DNA of 64,000 bases, from the sequence record MK482688.1; one strand, given 5' to 3'. Made by a program: the position numbers and the translations under genes. The notes beneath the pieces are model-generated. The model was not told the DNA's origin, did not search any database, and worked only from the letters and a program-made list of their open reading frames with translations. Below, in pieces: positions 42,520-60,140 of this stretch. Every line of letters begins with the position of its first letter. The first letter of the stretch is position 1. The stretch is from Escherichia phage vB_EcoM_LMP25.

Positions 42520-43629
42520 TTAGTCTTTAGCGTCAGAACGAACATCTACCAGCAACTGAGGACGAGTACAGTATGGCAGCATGTAAGAGTGAGCTTCAAA
42601 GTCGATACCTTCGTCACGGTCTTTTTCGTATTCGAATACGTATAGTTCCTGACCAAGTGTATTCGCATAACCCATCTTAGGACATGGGCCATATGCCACT
42701 TCGAAGATGTTGTTTGCTTCACCCAGCATAGAAACGTTAGGGAAAGCATGTCCTACACCTACAGTTCCATCCTGAGTAACACCATCAATGCTAACCAGAG
42801 TGTGAACTTTACCACGCTTGTCTTTGAACTTACCGTTGTACTGGACAAACTTAACACCACCGTAGTAGAAGGTGTTCATATGAGCCTGAACGCCGTCAGT
42901 ACCACCAGTTCTCAGAGAACCAGTAATCTGTTGCCAAGCCAGTGGAGTCTGCTGTGCAAGATAAGCGTCACGAATCTTAGGATGCTTGGTCAGTTTGCTG
43001 AAGAATACACGGTCAACAACTACGTGAATTTCTTCACCGTTGATTACAGTGCCAGTCTTAGCTTCGTCTTCCATGTGCATACGCAGTTCTTCAATAGAAG
43101 CGTCAATGTCAGCATTAGGGTTGTCAAGGTCGAAGTAAACAGTCTTCTTCTCAACGTCGAACTGCTTGTACAGGTCAGCATACAGAGTACCACGAGCATC
43201 AACAACTTTACCCTTCAGAGCTTGCATAAACAAGAACTCACGAGTAATATCGAACTTGGTACGAATCTTCATCAGCTTCTTAGCACGTACTACAGCTTCA
43301 GTAGTCAGTTCGTTTGCAGTGCCTGGCTGACGTACACCCTGAATCTCATCAGGAGTAATGCTTTCAACTTCTTTGAAGTACATCATTGGGAAGCTGATTT
43401 GACGAACACGCTCAGGTGCGCTAGTCTCTGCTTTACGGCTATCACGGTCTACCGCATCAAGCAAACTAACATCCCAATCAGTCAAGTCCATAAGGAAAGT
43501 AGTTTGGGTAATTGGTGCTGAACGGAACAGACCTAAGTTGGAAATATACCCATAAGTATTTGGGATAGACTGGACTTCACCAGTCAGGTCAGCAAGGAAA
43601 AATCTGCTTTTTTCAGAATTAGTCAACAT
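42520..43629 (-). CDS. Major capsid protein
   Basis: 369 aa; directly downstream of the protease/scaffold and decoration-like genes. Confidence 0.6.
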   Translation of the reverse strand: MLTNSEKSRFFLADLTGEVQSIPNTYGYISNLGLFRSAPITQTTFLMDLTDWDVSLLDAVDRDSRKAETSAPERVRQISFPMMYFKEVESITPDEIQGVRQPGTANELTTEAVVRAKKLMKIRTKFDITREFLFMQALKGKVVDARGTLYADLYKQFDVEKKTVYFDLDNPNADIDASIEELRMHMEDEAKTGTVINGEEIHVVVDRVFFSKLTKHPKIRDAYLAQQTPLAWQQITGSLRTGGTDGVQAHMNTFYYGGVKFVQYNGKFKDKRGKVHTLVSIDGVTQDGTVGVGHAFPNVSMLGEANNIFEVAYGPCPKMGYANTLGQELYVFEYEKDRDEGIDFEAHSYMLPYCTRPQLLVDVRSDAKD

Positions 43630-54196: not shown

Positions 54197-54284
54197 TGGT
54201 GTGCCGTGTAGGAGTCGAACCTACCGAGTCTCAATGACAAGGGATTTACAGTCCCCACCGCTACCATCTACGGGATAACGACAC
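54197..54284 (-). tRNA. tRNA-Tyr (GTA), type II
   Basis: Acceptor GTGTCGT/ACGGCAC, anticodon stem GGGGA/TCCCT with loop CTGTAAA, long variable arm, 88 nt. Confidence 0.7.
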
Positions 54285-54353
54285 ATTTAATTTCTATTCA
54301 GGCTAAGGACTTGCACCTTACAAATCGGTGAGCAATCGCTTCTCTCCTAAATT

Positions 54354-54430
54354 TGGCGGTTAGTCAGGGATTCGAACCCTGTGCCATTCGCTTAACAGGC
54401 GACCGCACATACCTTATGTGCTTCCTAACC
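54354..54430 (-). tRNA. tRNA-Asn (GTT)
   Basis: D-stem GCAC/GTGC, anticodon loop CTGTTAA, T-stem CAGGG/CCCTG. Confidence 0.7.
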
Positions 54431-54443
54431 ATGTTTAGTATTA

Positions 54444-54508
54444 CCAGACCGTATATTTCAATTTTTTCCGCTAAAAATTTAATAAATATTGCTGTAAACG
54501 GTCTTCTG
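54444..54508. repeat. tRNA-spacer repeat, copy c (CCAGACCGT ... TTGCTGTAAACGGTCTTCTG)
   Basis: Inverted arms AGACCGT / ACGGTCT around an AT-rich loop of about 45 nt; ends 6 nt before the next tRNA. Confidence 0.65.
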
Positions 54509-54514
54509 TAAATT

Positions 54515-54591
54515 TGGAGGCGGGTGCAGGAGTCGAACCTGCCGATACCATGCTAATGAGACATGTGAGACGCCCTTTCTCTATACCCGCA
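54515..54591 (-). tRNA. tRNA (CAT), second CAT-anticodon gene; Met or Ile2
   Basis: D-stem GAGA/TCTC, anticodon stem CATGT/GCATG with loop CTCATTA (unusual T37), T-arm GCAGG-TTCGACT-CCTGC, unpaired 1-72. Confidence 0.55.
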
Positions 54592-54602
54592 ATTCTTAAT
54601 GA

Positions 54603-54674
54603 CCAGACCAAATATCTTCTTTGTCCGATTAACTTTCAGATGAGTAGATTAAGTTTGCTGTAATTGGTCTTCTG
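54603..54674. repeat. tRNA-spacer repeat, copy d (CCAGACCAA ... TTGCTGTAATTGGTCTTCTG)
   Basis: Inverted arms AGACCAA / TTGGTCT; ends 7 nt before tRNA-Glu. Confidence 0.65.
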
Positions 54675-54681
54675 TCAAAAC

Positions 54682-54759
54682 TGGCGTTCCAGAAGGGATT
54701 TGAACCCTCAAATATCCACTTTGAAAGAGTGGTGACTTTACCATTTTGTCTACTGGAAC
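54682..54759 (-). tRNA. tRNA-Glu (TTC)
   Basis: Acceptor GTTCCAG/CTGGAAC, perfect anticodon stem CCACT/AGTGG with loop CTTTCAA. Confidence 0.75.
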
Positions 54760-54765
54760 ATTAAT

Positions 54766-54846
54766 TTGGTCTCCGTTGAAGGATTTGAACCCTCGACCCC
54801 TTGCTCCCAAAGCAAGTGCTGCTAAACCAAACTGAGCTAAACGGAG
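54766..54846 (-). tRNA. tRNA-Pro (TGG)
   Basis: Acceptor CTCCGTT/AACGGAG, perfect anticodon stem CTTGC/GCAAG with loop TTTGGGA. Confidence 0.7.
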
Positions 54847-55011: not shown

Positions 55012-56427
55012 TTACCAGATATAACGGTCAATCATTACTGCTTTGAGCATTACACTGATTGGGTCAAACTTCTCACCACCAAGCAGAGCTTTTAAAGTGG
55101 CTGGAGAGAACCCTGATACCATTGCTACACCGTTATCCTTAACAGATACTTCGCAAGTACCATTACGGTTTGCTAAGTACCAGAATACCAGTTGTGGCAT
55201 CTCATATCCAGCTTTTTTGTACTTACTCTGAATTGCTTCAAAGTTTGTACGTCCGTTAGCTCCATCAACCTGATTGAACTCCATATCGGAGAAGATGATA
55301 AGCTTACTTGGCATATCTTTCTGAGTCAAGTTGTTTCTTTTACCTGTCTCAAGAATGCGGTCAAAAGCTGCTTGTAAGTTAGTTGAGCCATATTCAACGT
55401 GTCGCATCACCTGACGATGACGGTTTCGTAAATTACCACTCAGTTCGATGAAGTGAGGGTTTGTTGAATAAACCATCAACTCATCCTTAAAGCAACCTGT
55501 ATTGCGTTCTGCTACATACAAGGCAAGTGATACACCAATATCAAGTGCAGTGATTGAACCAAAATTCACCCAAGACATTGAGCTTGAAACATCAGTCATA
55601 CATAGGATGTTTTCACCTTCTGCCATCCAGTTTGGTAGTGCTTTCCACTGCTCATTAGCAACATCTGCATTACCATACTTGAGAGATTTAATCACATCGT
55701 ATGGATAAACAGCACCAGCATTAATCTTAGTCTCACCTTTTGATAAGGACTCGATGTAAGCTTTGTAACGCTCTCCATCTTTACGGTTAAACAGTTTTTG
55801 GTAACGTGCAGCAGCAAGTGAAGGAATCTTACTGTAGTCAATATTACCAAACTCATTAGCAGAGATTTTTTGTTCAACTGTATCAGATAGTGCAGACAGC
55901 AGTGTGCGGTACTCTTTCTCACTCAAGTTTGCAAACTTGCAGAAACGTTTTACAAACTGCTTATGACGTGGTTTGACTCGTGGTAACCACTTAGCCGCCA
56001 AACCTGCTGTTGCAGGGTCTAGTAATGCTGCTTCTAAATGTTTGAAGGCATCTGTCTCGAAACGAGTACCTACGAAGATTTTGAAGTCATCAAAACGACC
56101 AAGTTCTGCAATCTTATCCATAATGCGAAGAACCTGCGTAGGCTCTAAAACTTTATCTTCAATCGCTTGAAGCAAAACAGTTCTGAAGGCTTTACGCTCA
56201 CCCATACCTTCTCGTACATCTCGCATATGCAGTAAAATACGAACTGCAACATCAACATCCTCACGCAAAGCTTTGTAGAACAAGTCTGGTAAGATTTCTA
56301 CATTGCTACGGCTTGAACCAGCAGCTTTGTAAAAATCTACAAGAGCAGACATTGATGAAGTATGGTTTACAGCACCATTTTCAGTTCGACCTGCATGAAG
56401 GTGCGCATGTTTAAATAACTCGCTCAT
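55012..56427 (-). CDS. von Willebrand factor A (vWA) domain protein with helical N-terminal domain; possible Ro60/TROVE-like RNA-binding protein
   Basis: 471 aa; MIDAS motif DVSSSM (DxSxS) at about residue 296 starts a ~175-aa C-terminal vWA-like region; ~290-aa helical N-terminus. Encoded directly upstream of the tRNA array. Confidence 0.5.
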   Translation of the reverse strand: MSELFKHAHLHAGRTENGAVNHTSSMSALVDFYKAAGSSRSNVEILPDLFYKALREDVDVAVRILLHMRDVREGMGERKAFRTVLLQAIEDKVLEPTQVLRIMDKIAELGRFDDFKIFVGTRFETDAFKHLEAALLDPATAGLAAKWLPRVKPRHKQFVKRFCKFANLSEKEYRTLLSALSDTVEQKISANEFGNIDYSKIPSLAAARYQKLFNRKDGERYKAYIESLSKGETKINAGAVYPYDVIKSLKYGNADVANEQWKALPNWMAEGENILCMTDVSSSMSWVNFGSITALDIGVSLALYVAERNTGCFKDELMVYSTNPHFIELSGNLRNRHRQVMRHVEYGSTNLQAAFDRILETGKRNNLTQKDMPSKLIIFSDMEFNQVDGANGRTNFEAIQSKYKKAGYEMPQLVFWYLANRNGTCEVSVKDNGVAMVSGFSPATLKALLGGEKFDPISVMLKAVMIDRYIW

Positions 56428-57290: not shown

Positions 57291-57505
57291 AAATCGCAGA
57301 TATTATAGATTTATATAAAACTGCAAAGAGTCATGGCTATATAACCTCAATTGGAAAGAATAGTCACTACGATGCTTTGACTGGAATGTATTTCAGGGCA
57401 ATGGCTCAATCTAGTGAACAACACTTAATGGTTTCTTCCAGTGAGTTTACTTCGTTTCTCTATTGCAGCAAAATTATAAATCGCAGGAGAACTGAAAAAT
57501 GTTAA
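57272..57505 (+). CDS. Hypothetical protein
   Basis: 77 aa; AGAGGA RBS. Confidence 0.35.
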   Translation: MCSSQLEIADIIDLYKTAKSHGYITSIGKNSHYDALTGMYFRAMAQSSEQHLMVSSSEFTSFLYCSKIINRRRTEKC

Positions 57506-58089
57506 CAGTAAGTTTTAATTACAATAGTGATGGCTCTGTATCAATTAATTCACCATATGCAAATGACCTACTTAAAGAGCTAGTCAATCAGTGTGGTAGA
57601 GGTCTTCACTATGTTCAAAATTCTTTTAAACAGAAGACTATTGCTAATAACTTGATGCGTGTAACAGTAACGGCATCGAATCCAAATTATGACTTTGATA
57701 GTGAAAGTCCGTATTCATTAGTTGCGCTTGGAGAGAGCAGCCAATTCAAACTTGTTTGCCACGACTCAGAAACATTCCTTAAGGTATTTTCCAACCTTAT
57801 CCATAATAATAAGTACAGCTACGTTGATGGTAGTGTAAATTTCTATCCAGCAAACTATACATGTTTGTTGGTTGATAATATGAGAAAAAGTAAGCAAGAG
57901 CCTACGGAAATTTCATTTGATGTGAACTCTAGTCCAGACGCAGAAACAAGTAAGAACTTTGATATGAGTTACGCATTGTCACTCAGTAAGAAATCCGAGT
58001 TCATTGATTATGTCAATGGATTTGGTTTTAAGTTTGATGAGAGTATGAATCTTAAAAAACTTAAGAACCTACTTAAGACCAAAGCTTAA
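57499..58089 (+). CDS. Hypothetical protein
   Basis: 196 aa. Confidence 0.4.
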   Translation: MLTVSFNYNSDGSVSINSPYANDLLKELVNQCGRGLHYVQNSFKQKTIANNLMRVTVTASNPNYDFDSESPYSLVALGESSQFKLVCHDSETFLKVFSNLIHNNKYSYVDGSVNFYPANYTCLLVDNMRKSKQEPTEISFDVNSSPDAETSKNFDMSYALSLSKKSEFIDYVNGFGFKFDESMNLKKLKNLLKTKA

Positions 58090-58136
58090 GTGTGAATAGG
58101 GGCTTATGCCCCTTTAACTATTTATAAGGATATTTA

Positions 58137-58508
58137 ATGAAAGCTAAGAGTGCAAAAGACTTTTATTGCTTCCTACAATCCTATATCAATTCCGTGCAAA
58201 ATGGTGAAAGGTACAACCTTAATGATGTTATCCCAACACCTTTGACATGGAGACTCAGTAAATGGCCTGAAGAAGATATTACACCAACAAGCGAACAGCG
58301 TACCTACAAACCTGAAATCAATATTCCAGACTCTGAGAATCTATTATACCCAATGTTCCATATTGTTGGTCTTGGAAGATTCCTTATGGATATCCAGTAT
58401 GTAATTGGTAAAGGCTATAAGGTTAAAGGTATTGTCGTTGGTGATGTATCTCCGAATCACAAAGGTTATTTTAGACTAAACGCACATTTAGAGGCTGAAA
58501 AGAAATGA
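58137..58508 (+). CDS. Hypothetical protein, paralogous to the N-terminal domain of the next gene
   Basis: 123 aa; aligns with residues 1-120 of the 58505 product (KAK..DF..F...I..V..G.RY ... WPE.DI ... Y.KP ... LLY ... FMD.QY.I..GK). Confidence 0.45.
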   Translation: MKAKSAKDFYCFLQSYINSVQNGERYNLNDVIPTPLTWRLSKWPEEDITPTSEQRTYKPEINIPDSENLLYPMFHIVGLGRFLMDIQYVIGKGYKVKGIVVGDVSPNHKGYFRLNAHLEAEKK

Positions 58509-59638
58509 TTAAAGCAAAGACTTACCCAGACTTCAAAGAGTTTGTGAAGGGCTTCATTGCAAACGTAAAGGCTGGTAAGAGATATGATTTTAGAACATAT
58601 CAAGAGGCTATTTTACCACTTACCTATAGCTCGTATTGGCCTGAAGCTGATATTGCAGAAGTTGAGAAGTTTGACTATAAACCAGACTACAAAGTTCCAT
58701 TTAGTGATGAGTTGCTTTACAGTGTTGGTGCTCAAATGAGAACTTCTGACTTCTTCATGGACTTACAATATGCAATTATCAATGGTAAAGACGTTGATAC
58801 AGTTTATTGTGAATGGCTGGCAAGAGTTAAACCATTCTCAATGTTGAATGCTAAGTTGAAGGGCGCTATCAAGCCACCATCAATCACTCAGCAACCAACC
58901 AATCAAACAGTAAATGAAGGTGGTACACTTACCCTAAGCGTTATTGCAACTAATGCCACTGGATATCAATGGAAAAAGGATGGTGAGGATATCACTAGCG
59001 CCACATCTGCAACCTACACAAAACAGTCTGTAGAACCTTCTGATGCCGGTTCATACACTTGTGTTGTATCTGGAGAGGCTGGGACAAGCGTTACCTCAGA
59101 TGCGGCAACAGTTACTGTCAACACACTGCCTGTGATTACACAACAACCTTCTAGCCAGACCGTCAATGAGGGTGGAAACATCAACTTGGAAGTGACTGCA
59201 ACAGGTGCAACAGGTTATCAGTGGAAGAAAGATGGCTCTGACATTCCTTCGGCTACAGATGCAACCTATAGTAAGTCTGGTGCTCTGCCAGCAGATGCAG
59301 GTTCATACACTTGCGTTGTAACAGGTGCAGGTGGTTCTGTCACTTCTAACCCTGCAACCGTTACTGTGAAAGCTTTACCAGTTATCACTCAACAGCCAAC
59401 CAATCAAGAAATCACTGAAGGTGAGACCTTAACGCTGAATGTTGTGGCAACAGGTGCGACAGGTTACCAATGGAAGAAAGGTGAGGAAGACATCCTCGAT
59501 GCAACTACTGCAACTTACACCAAAGAAGGTGCAACCGCTGCTGATGCAGGAAGCTACACCTGTGTAGTTACTGGTGCAGGTGGCTCTGTAACATCCAATG
59601 CAGCAACAGTTACAGTTAACCCAGCAGGGGAGGCGTAA
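58505..59638 (+). CDS. Protein with duplicated N-terminal domain and three tandem Ig-like repeats (Hoc-like surface protein candidate)
   Basis: 377 aa; three ~85-aa repeats (ITQQP(T/S)(N/S)Q.(V/I).EG..L.L.V.ATGATGYQWKK...Y.. ...DAGSYTCVV(T/S)G.(A/G)G.S.TS..ATVTV), an Ig I-set-like pattern. Confidence 0.5.
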   Translation: MIKAKTYPDFKEFVKGFIANVKAGKRYDFRTYQEAILPLTYSSYWPEADIAEVEKFDYKPDYKVPFSDELLYSVGAQMRTSDFFMDLQYAIINGKDVDTVYCEWLARVKPFSMLNAKLKGAIKPPSITQQPTNQTVNEGGTLTLSVIATNATGYQWKKDGEDITSATSATYTKQSVEPSDAGSYTCVVSGEAGTSVTSDAATVTVNTLPVITQQPSSQTVNEGGNINLEVTATGATGYQWKKDGSDIPSATDATYSKSGALPADAGSYTCVVTGAGGSVTSNPATVTVKALPVITQQPTNQEITEGETLTLNVVATGATGYQWKKGEEDILDATTATYTKEGATAADAGSYTCVVTGAGGSVTSNAATVTVNPAGEA

Positions 59639-60102
59639 TGCAACTCTCAAGAAAAGGTTTAGATGCTATTAAGTTCTTCGAAGGTCTGGAGTTAGAGGCT
59701 TACGAAGATTCTGCCGGAATCCCAACAATCGGGTATGGGACAATCCGTATTGACGGAAAACCTGTTAAGATGGGTATGAAAATTACTGCTGAACAAGCTG
59801 AACAGTATCTTCTCGCGGATGTTGAGAAGTTTGTTGCAGCAGTGAACAAAGCTATCAAGGTTCCAACTACTCAGAATGAGTTCGATGCACTTGTAAGTGA
59901 AACATACAACATCGGTATCACAGCTATGCAGGATTCCACATTTATCAAGCGCCACAATGCTGGTAATAAGGTAGGTTGTGCAGAAGCTATGCAGTGGTGG
60001 AACAAGGTTACAGTCAAAGGTAAGAAGGTCACTTCAAACGGTCTGAAAAACAGACGTAGAATGGAAGCTGACATTTATCTTGACAGTGTATACCCAAAGT
60101 AA
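59638..60102 (+). CDS. Endolysin, glycoside hydrolase family 24 lysozyme
   Basis: FFEGLELEAYEDSAGIPTIGYGT matches the catalytic Glu/Asp region of lambda/T4-type lysozymes. Confidence 0.7.
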   Translation: MQLSRKGLDAIKFFEGLELEAYEDSAGIPTIGYGTIRIDGKPVKMGMKITAEQAEQYLLADVEKFVAAVNKAIKVPTTQNEFDALVSETYNIGITAMQDSTFIKRHNAGNKVGCAEAMQWWNKVTVKGKKVTSNGLKNRRRMEADIYLDSVYPK

Positions 60103-60112
60103 TATCTTCATA

Positions 60113-60140
60113 GGCTCCTTCGGGAGCCTTTTTTATTTTC
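60113..60140 (+). terminator. Intrinsic terminator GGCTCC-TTCG-GGAGCC followed by TTTTTTATTTT
   Basis: Perfect 6-bp GC stem, TTCG loop, T-run; directly after the lysozyme stop. Confidence 0.6.

Follow-up and report, generated by a model that had tools for sequence, protein, structure and literature searches.

A free-standing copy of the Hex-Dec anchor domain in a late gene block of a Felixounavirus

The window analyzed here is a stretch of 64,000 nucleotides from Escherichia phage vB_EcoM_LMP25 (sequence record MK482688.1). In a similarity search the region was 100% identical to Escherichia phage vB_EcoM_LMP34/LMP33 and ~97% identical to wV8, and the window is therefore that of a Felixounavirus. 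The locus contains two adjacent genes, herein ORF A and ORF B, and an endolysin gene. The gene for the major capsid protein, located by searching all six reading frames with the gp58 peptide of Felix O1, lies ~15 kb from ORF B. The features are as follows.

58099..58125, plus strand: weak hairpin/terminator, GGGGC-ttat-GCCCC followed by a T-rich tail, just 5' of ORF A
58137..58508, plus strand: ORF A, 123 aa, 14.3 kDa, pI 8.6; anchor-domain paralog with no Ig domains
58505..59638, plus strand: ORF B, 377 aa, 40-kDa Hoc-like hexamer decoration protein
58505..58864, plus strand: capsid-binding domain (CapBD), ORF B aa 1-120, near-identical to the modelled 9ncf_S and 9c2d_S, R79 and R107 included
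58877..59128, plus strand: Ig-like repeat 1, ORF B aa 125-208, matching Pfam Ig_3, Ig_2 and I-set
59129..59377, plus strand: Ig-like repeat 2, ORF B aa 209-291, placed by Pfam and the repeat boundaries
59378..59638, plus strand: Ig-like repeat 3, ORF B aa 292-377, ending in the PAGEA tail at the C-terminus and the stop codon
59638..60102, plus strand: endolysin (glycoside hydrolase family 24 lysozyme), Pfam Phage_lysozyme 4.5e-41, phrog_7 endolysin
60112..60139, plus strand: strong intrinsic terminator, also a terminator in the wV8 annotation; its 7-bp stem includes 5 GC pairs and precedes TTTTTATTTT
42520..43629, minus strand: major capsid protein gene

ORF A, ORF B and the endolysin gene form a block on the plus strand, with the weak hairpin before it and the strong terminator after it. 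The stop codon of ORF A and the start codon of ORF B overlap in the motif ATGA, and the stop codon of ORF B and the lysozyme start overlap in TAATG (59638). A Shine-Dalgarno-like motif precedes each of the three genes, and the ribosome-binding site of ORF A is a good one. The original prediction had placed the pair just upstream of a lysozyme gene, and the Pfam match of the next gene agrees with this. The consensus terminator scan missed the hairpin at 58099..58125, which was read straight from the sequence; its counterpart in wV8 is an annotated Rho-independent terminator (L001 6700-6713), and the Felix O1 terminator table also contains this element. A consensus scan found no sigma-70-like promoter between the hairpin and ORF A. 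In Felix O1, RT-PCR showed that ORF 36 (Hex-Dec) and ORF 37 (the ORF A ortholog by position) are expressed late, with a peak at 60 min, and assigned the lysin to the middle expression class. ORF A, ORF B and the endolysin gene are a late three-gene block of a Felixounavirus.

The short overlap raised the question of whether ORF A and ORF B could be joined by a programmed frameshift. No canonical slippery heptamer was seen by eye at the overlap. Moreover, the ATGA overlap of the window gives way to one of 8 nt in SUSP1 and of 1 nt in a metagenomic relative, so the two frames do not keep a constant relation. The frameshift fusion was rejected, and an ordinary overlap of adjacent genes is preferred.

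The original prediction held that the product of ORF A aligns with the N-terminal ~120 aa of the next protein, and it named a pairwise alignment as the way to disprove this. In that comparison the similarity of the two N-terminal regions was significant: BLASTP gave 37% identity over 101 aa (E=9e-17), and the Smith-Waterman score was 144, compared with 27.2 +/- 4.8 (maximum 55) in 2000 shuffles (z=24). The three tandem Ig-like repeats of ~85 aa that had been proposed for ORF B were also found. They occupy aa 125-377, measure 84, 83 and 86 aa, share 70-71% identity at the protein level and 63-67% at the DNA level, and all match Pfam Ig_3 (2e-34), Ig_2 and I-set. Tandem Repeats Finder detected no DNA-level tandem array in the Ig region, and the repeat is therefore old and visible at the protein level, rather than a recent DNA duplication; with DNA identity of only 63-67%, a recent expansion of the Ig repeats at the DNA level was discarded. 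An internal duplication inside the anchor domain was considered as well, since the Bas63 authors describe two pseudo-C2 lobes in this domain (PMC12609058, PMC11821841, the Bas63 and Sf14 papers). The two halves have no sequence similarity in either ORF A (z = -0.02) or the CapBD (z = -0.9), and this candidate was dropped.

ORF B matched two proteins of known structure over its full length from residue 1 in phmmer searches: 9ncf_S, the 'Immunoglobulin-like domain protein' of Bas63 (E=4.8e-299), and 9c2d_S/9c3a_S, the 'tail protein' of Shigella phage Sf14 (E=1e-167). Judged by its sequence, ORF B is the ortholog of Bas63 Hex-Dec (bas63_0124, 9NCF chain S) and of Sf14 gp20 (9C2D/9C3A). The structures of Hex-Dec/gp20 were solved in 2025 by cryo-EM, and revealed a monomeric Hoc-like capsid decoration protein, the N-terminal ~118-120 residues of which form a CapBD located at the center of the pentamer-proximal hexamers of the T=9 head (PMC12609058, PMC11821841). 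The Ig-like domains point outward and are disordered, and at the hexamers on the true 3-fold axes no density was seen in either the Bas63 or the Sf14 study (PMC12609058, PMC11821841). In the Foldseek listing, 9ncf_S and 9c2d_S comprise 122 and 120 modelled residues. Thus the N-terminal domain, described in the original prediction as unknown, had already been solved in Sf14 (9C2D/9C3A) and Bas63 (9NCF), while the analogy drawn there with T4 Hoc was apt, as the ORF B orthologs are Hoc-like capsid decoration proteins by cryo-EM.

In Sf14, the reported salt bridges of Arg79 and Arg107 run to Asp221, contributed by three subunits of the capsid protein. In the 3-fold hexamers two of these three aspartates are displaced, and Hex-Dec is excluded from these sites for this reason. 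The hexamer center is acidic. Both R79 and R107 are kept in ORF B, and residues 215-227 of the major capsid protein encoded in the window read KHPKIRDAYLAQQ, so that capsid residue 221 is D. Mass spectrometry of Felix O1 virions detected gp36, the ORF B ortholog. A preprint on genome-wide knockouts found Bas63 gp124 to be more essential on E. coli S17-1 than on three other hosts. From the cryo-EM of Bas63 and Sf14 and the mass spectrometry of Felix O1, ORF B probably sits on the capsid hexamers of this phage.

Database records suggest another location. Most related records carry a 'tail' annotation ('tail protein' in GenBank, 'tail' for PHROG 3995, 'HK97 major tail subunit' in the old Felix O1 annotation), and PHROG 'major tail protein' families match the Ig region of ORF B, from which both proteins might be taken for tail proteins or tail adhesins. 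However, the likeness to tail proteins is confined to the promiscuous Ig-like repeats (residues 117-373), and for the orthologs of ORF B the tail location is refuted by cryo-EM, which places them on capsid hexamers (9NCF, 9C2D). The Bas63 authors themselves call the 'tail protein' label an error. We give a tail role for the two proteins practically no credence; the label 'tail protein' for ORF B is wrong and still stands in most genomes.

A T=9 capsid has 60 pentamer-proximal hexamer sites and 20 hexamers on 3-fold axes, 80 in total. One copy of ORF B would put its ~120-aa CapBD into the acidic center of each of the 60 pentamer-proximal hexamers, where R79 and R107 would pair with Asp221 of the major capsid protein. 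The three flexible, acidic Ig-like domains would project from the surface, probably for the roles proposed for Hoc, namely weak surface adhesion or the aggregation of particles. Nothing about ORF B is new in itself, as it belongs, with three Ig domains, to the decoration family solved in 2025.

ORF A is a free-standing copy of the Hex-Dec anchor domain. Its only sequence matches in the PDB were two Hex-Dec chains (E=1.2e-11 and 5.3e-11), and in PHROGs it matched phrog_4463 (unknown function) and the Hex-Dec family only; Pfam gave no match. The fold is that of the capsid-binding domain. The pLDDT of the AF2 model was 65 with a shallow alignment and rose to 78 once distant homologs were added. 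A fold search found no other PDB relatives of the anchor. The protein ends after the anchor, at 123 aa, and has no Ig repeat. Its counterparts are wV8 gp42, Felix O1 gp37, bas63_0125 and VpaE1 ORF40 (PHROG 4463), and a description of ORF A was not found in the literature.

Comparison of the two paralogs separates what was kept from what was changed. Twenty-two positions are invariant in both, and as most of these are hydrophobic or proline they are taken to be core positions. Nine positions (10, 13, 78, 79, 83, 94, 103, 110 and 111) are fixed but different between the paralogs, and they cluster in the two loops that bear R79 and R107 in Hex-Dec; positions 78, 79, 110 and 111 are the type-II sites of ORF A. 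Neither anchor arginine is conserved in ORF A, which has an invariant G78 at the place of ORF B R79 and a variable residue (N, Q, H or R) at that of R107. Likewise, ORF A has G110 where ORF B and all single-copy homologs have P. Since the single-copy homologs mostly keep R or K at the positions aligned to R79 and R107, ORF A is the derived copy. Yet the anchor arginines are not universal in the distant single-copy homologs, and their loss from ORF A is therefore no proof of lost capsid binding. The polar residues D85, Q87 and N115 are invariant in ORF A, ORF B and all distant homologs; on this evidence, ancestral capsid binding could be retained more fully than assumed.

ORF A is intact and of the same length in 232 of the 252 related genomes, which belong to Felixounavirus, Mooglevirus and Suspvirus, and wherever present it is followed directly by the genes for Hex-Dec and the endolysin. 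It has been lost from ~8% of the related genomes, including a natural lineage, and is dispensable in the laboratory and in nature. A word-indexed protein search retrieved close family members only, while an exhaustive profile search of 1.84 billion protein representatives recovered just 13 clusters with the anchor domain, one of which (P0101) is a spurious repeat protein. An 87-kb metagenomic contig encodes the same pair in the same order beside a lysozyme gene; identity is 44% between its ORF A-type protein (P0097) and ORF A, and 58% between the CapBD of its ORF B-type protein and that of ORF B. In a neighbor-joining tree, the ORF A-type sequences, P0097 included, formed one clade apart from the ORF B-type sequences, with 99% bootstrap. 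The more distant relatives have a single CapBD gene per recovered stretch, which in two of them (L016 and L017) lies before a lysozyme gene, and the upstream genes of four stretches (L016-L019) match those of the window (DUF2828, DUF5681 and a ~185-aa ORF). The simplest history consistent with these sequences is one tandem duplication before the split of Felixounavirus, Mooglevirus and Suspvirus. On this history, ORF A goes back to a tandem duplication in the common ancestor of these genera, which copied either the anchor domain alone or the entire gene, in the latter case with subsequent loss of the Ig repeats.

Next, we consider whether ORF A is a functional gene. Loss from about 8% of the related genomes and the lack of a reported phenotype are what one would expect of a decaying or functionless duplicate, or of an ORF that is not a real gene. 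However, pairwise dN/dS was 0.08-0.22 for ORF A over pairs with dS up to about 1.5, compared with 0.01-0.14 for the ORF B CapBD, and ORF A is thus under purifying selection, which is looser than that on the CapBD. The intact, same-length ORF in the great majority of the genomes, the 44%-identical metagenomic relative, the good ribosome-binding site, the transcript detected in Felix O1 and the confident predicted fold all argue in the same direction. We regard a functionless ORF A as very improbable.

The presence of ORF A in virions is addressed by two proteomes and two capsid structures. The Felix O1 virion proteome, compiled at a cut-off of at least 25% coverage, contains gp36 and several proteins of 9.7-13.7 kDa; gp37 is absent. 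For VpaE1, the paper's text gives 22 virion proteins, namely the Felix O1 set plus gp54, gp58 and gp68, and from this wording ORF40, the ORF A ortholog, is not included. Both Bas63 (bas63_0125, found by tblastn) and Sf14 encode ORF A, which is neither modelled nor mentioned in the respective papers (PMC12609058, PMC11821841). A text search of these found 'paralog' in neither, and 'duplication' was absent from the Bas63 paper. From the proteomes and the capsid maps, we infer that ORF A is not a stable component of the virion. The suggestion of the original prediction that the N-terminal domain is a virion-anchoring module therefore holds in part. It stands for ORF B, with the capsid hexamers of the head as the anchoring site, but does not transfer cleanly to ORF A, the anchoring of which is doubtful because its anchor residues are replaced, it is absent from the Felix O1 proteome and it is unmodelled in both capsids.

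These data bear directly on the possibility that ORF A is a subfunctionalized second decoration protein, in which the Ig-less ORF A would cap the 20 three-fold hexamers and Hex-Dec the other 60, so that together they would occupy all 80. ORF A shares the fold of the capsid-binding domain and is co-transcribed late with Hex-Dec, the start codon of which its stop codon overlaps. The 3-fold hexamers, with two of three Asp221 residues shifted, exclude Hex-Dec, and ORF A is changed in exactly those loops that carry the Asp221-pairing arginines, with the new residues kept invariant. A slightly basic protein (pI 8.6) would also suit the acidic hexamer center. Against this, neither cryo-EM study shows density at the other hexamers, though both phages encode ORF A; a monomer on a true 3-fold axis would, however, be blurred by icosahedral averaging. 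Low mass and copy number could explain the absence of ORF A from the older proteomes, yet the Felix O1 proteome, which lacks the ortholog, includes proteins of 9.7-13.7 kDa and proteins, such as the portal, with an expected copy number that is comparable or lower, and the ortholog is not among the VpaE1 additions. One natural lineage, moreover, does without ORF A. In sum, ORF A is probably not a second decoration protein, and the capping of the 3-fold hexamers appears distinctly unlikely.

Alternatively, ORF A may have been neofunctionalized toward a target other than the capsid (Hex-Dec itself, another phage protein, a host factor or a defense component) and have no role in the head. In ORF A the ancestral R79 and P110 are gone, as is the basic residue at 107, and other residues have become fixed at 78, 79, 110 and 111. 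Its dN is 2-3 times that of the ORF B CapBD, despite a very conserved capsid protein, and a capsid partner would explain this faster evolution no better than a non-capsid one. Both the absence of ORF A from the virion proteomes and maps and its dispensability in the laboratory and in nature agree with such a target. In addition, neighbors of ORF A in Bas63 interact with defense systems, with retron Ec67 responding to the endolysin g123 and the Ro60-like gp130 acting against ppl. However, nothing found here points to a particular alternative partner; of these Bas63 genes, g123 and gp124 appear in the PhageMaP text, and g125 is not mentioned. The database matches of ORF A, with none in Pfam and only phrog_4463 and the Hex-Dec family in PHROGs, do not point to another partner either, and its place immediately before the Hex-Dec gene, which has persisted through protein divergence of about 56%, speaks for a functional link. 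We consider a non-capsid target possible, if somewhat unlikely.

On balance, we lean toward ORF A not being a stable component of the head and acting off the virion or transiently. ORF A keeps the fold and the hydrophobic core of the anchor, with different residues fixed in the two capsid-contact loops, and is made late, together with Hex-Dec, as a dispensable protein. Its binding partner and the effect of binding are matters of inference: it would most likely be a weak or conformation-specific binder of the hexamer center during head assembly, and its binding would tune where and when Hex-Dec binds.

The new part of this locus is, modestly, the anchor-only paralog; the rest was mostly already explained. 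The copy of the capsid-binding domain in ORF A is conserved and expressed late, consists of the anchor only, and goes unmentioned in both structural papers. If ORF A still binds hexamers, it could serve as a natural experiment on the discrimination of quasi-equivalent capsomers by a decoration protein, and also as a compact capsid-display tag for therapeutic phages of the Felix O1 type. If it caps the 3-fold hexamers, then duplication has fitted one decoration fold to two quasi-equivalent capsomer conformations. If, instead, it does not bind hexamers, a structural fold has been recruited to a non-structural role.

Finally, we compared the two proteins with known systems. ORF B has the sequence features of Hex-Dec and Sf14 gp20: the CapBD, a number of Ig repeats within the range of one to four, and R79/R107 with Asp221 in the capsid protein. 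The number of Ig repeats is three in ORF B as in Sf14, four in Bas63 and two in Felix O1. ORF A differs from Hex-Dec/gp20 in having no Ig repeats, in lacking both of the reported anchor arginines and in having Gly in place of the otherwise invariant Pro110.

Like T4 Hoc, ORF B belongs to the non-essential monomers at hexamer centers that display a string of Ig-like domains and have a proposed role in adhesion or aggregation. The PHROG 'Hoc-like head decoration' families match only its Ig region (residues 122-290, 1.1e-41). The domain order is reversed: in Hoc the anchor is C-terminal, after the Ig domains, whereas in ORF B it is N-terminal. The 60 best sequence matches of ORF B include no Hoc chain, nor do the matches of ORF A at E<=10 or the sequence and fold matches listed for the anchor. 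We know of no anchor-only paralog in T4. According to the Bas63 authors, the anchor is larger than that of Hoc, topologically distinct and pseudo-C2-symmetric (PMC12609058, PMC11821841). The Ig domain of T5 pb10 (5LXK, 8ZVI) matches ORF B residues 215-292 (E about 1e-11), but pb10 has a single Ig domain and ORF B has three. The capsid-binding domain of pb10 has no sequence or fold match to the anchor, and ORF A matched neither 5lxk_A nor 8zvi_a. ORF B functions in the manner of both T4 Hoc and the T5 decoration protein pb10, yet it belongs to neither family, since its similarity to them is limited to the Ig parts and its anchor is unrelated to theirs.

Further parallels are the single-copy CapBD genes of distant, Felix O1-like metagenomic phages (P0099, P0100, P0102, P0103 and P0104), which share the anchor at E=1e-4 to 5e-10 with the family profile. 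Unlike the window, the stretches recovered for these genes contain no free-standing CapBD copy. The anchor is joined in them to different C-terminal cargo: Big_2-type Ig domains in P0099 and P0100, an I-set-like domain in P0102, a ~85-aa tail in P0103, and a Lys/Ser-rich disordered tail in P0104.

Among distant metagenomic relatives, the capsid-binding domain that ORF A carries in free-standing form (the anchor) was joined to various C-terminal parts. The anchor-domain genes in these contigs were located as follows:

L016, 6001..6462, anchor-domain gene
L018, 3182..3799, anchor-domain gene
L013, 869..1489, anchor-domain gene
L014, 2179..2868, anchor-domain gene

In the distant proteins P0099 and P0100 the anchor domain was followed by a Big_2-type Ig domain, in P0102 by an I-set-like domain, in P0103 by an unassigned tail, and in P0104 by a disordered tail rich in Lys and Ser. 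The anchor domain looks like a constant platform, with display modules that can be swapped at its C-terminus. Among close relatives of ORF B, the Hoc-like capsid decoration protein, the number of Ig repeats ranged from one to four (forms of 210, 294, 377 and 460 aa). The three repeats of ORF B itself (58877..59635, + strand) were 70–71% identical in protein but only 63–67% identical in DNA; since protein identity exceeded DNA identity, synonymous sites have diverged heavily. This divergence could reflect either the age of the repeats or selection against recombination between them.

The gene block containing ORF A and ORF B is flanked by a gene upstream of its weak hairpin and closed by the endolysin gene:

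57499..58089, + strand, ORF of 196 aa matching phrog_4034 (unknown function), directly 5' of the hairpin
59638..60102, + strand, endolysin, last gene of the block, orthologue of bas63_0123

The position of the phrog_4034 ORF was kept in all relatives. A counterpart of ~185 aa lay directly 5' of the single capsid-binding domain gene in the most distant contigs; in L016 and L017 it abutted that gene and had a faint Phage_Inh_N match. The phrog_4034 ORF may be part of the same functional neighbourhood as the capsid-binding domain genes.

A tblastn search with ORF A, together with VpaE1 Table S1, revealed that the VpaE1 ORF A protein has a counterpart of 99% identity in the record "Staphylococcus phage SA1". 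With a Felix O1-type gene in a Staphylococcus phage record, this entry looks mislabelled or contaminated.

A genome-wide knockout preprint reported that bas63_0123 can trigger the defence system retron Ec67, with toxicity confined to the retron-bearing background (10.1101/2024.10.10.617714). The metagenomic phage in which ORF A and ORF B are likewise paired has a gene matching Gad1 ~5 kb downstream of its lysozyme gene:

L011, 11510..12369, gene matching Gad1 (anti-Gabija, PF25705)
L012, 8967..9826, gene with the same match

Elsewhere in the window, a cluster of tRNA genes adjoins the gene of a DUF2828 protein:

49771..54846, - strand, cluster of 25 tRNA genes
55012..56427, - strand, DUF2828 "RNA-binding protein" of 471 aa, orthologue of Bas63 gp130

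Bas63 gp130 has been described as Ro60-like and as countering the ppl defence system, and a Y-RNA-like partner role for some of the tRNA genes has been speculated upon (10.1101/2024.10.10.617714).
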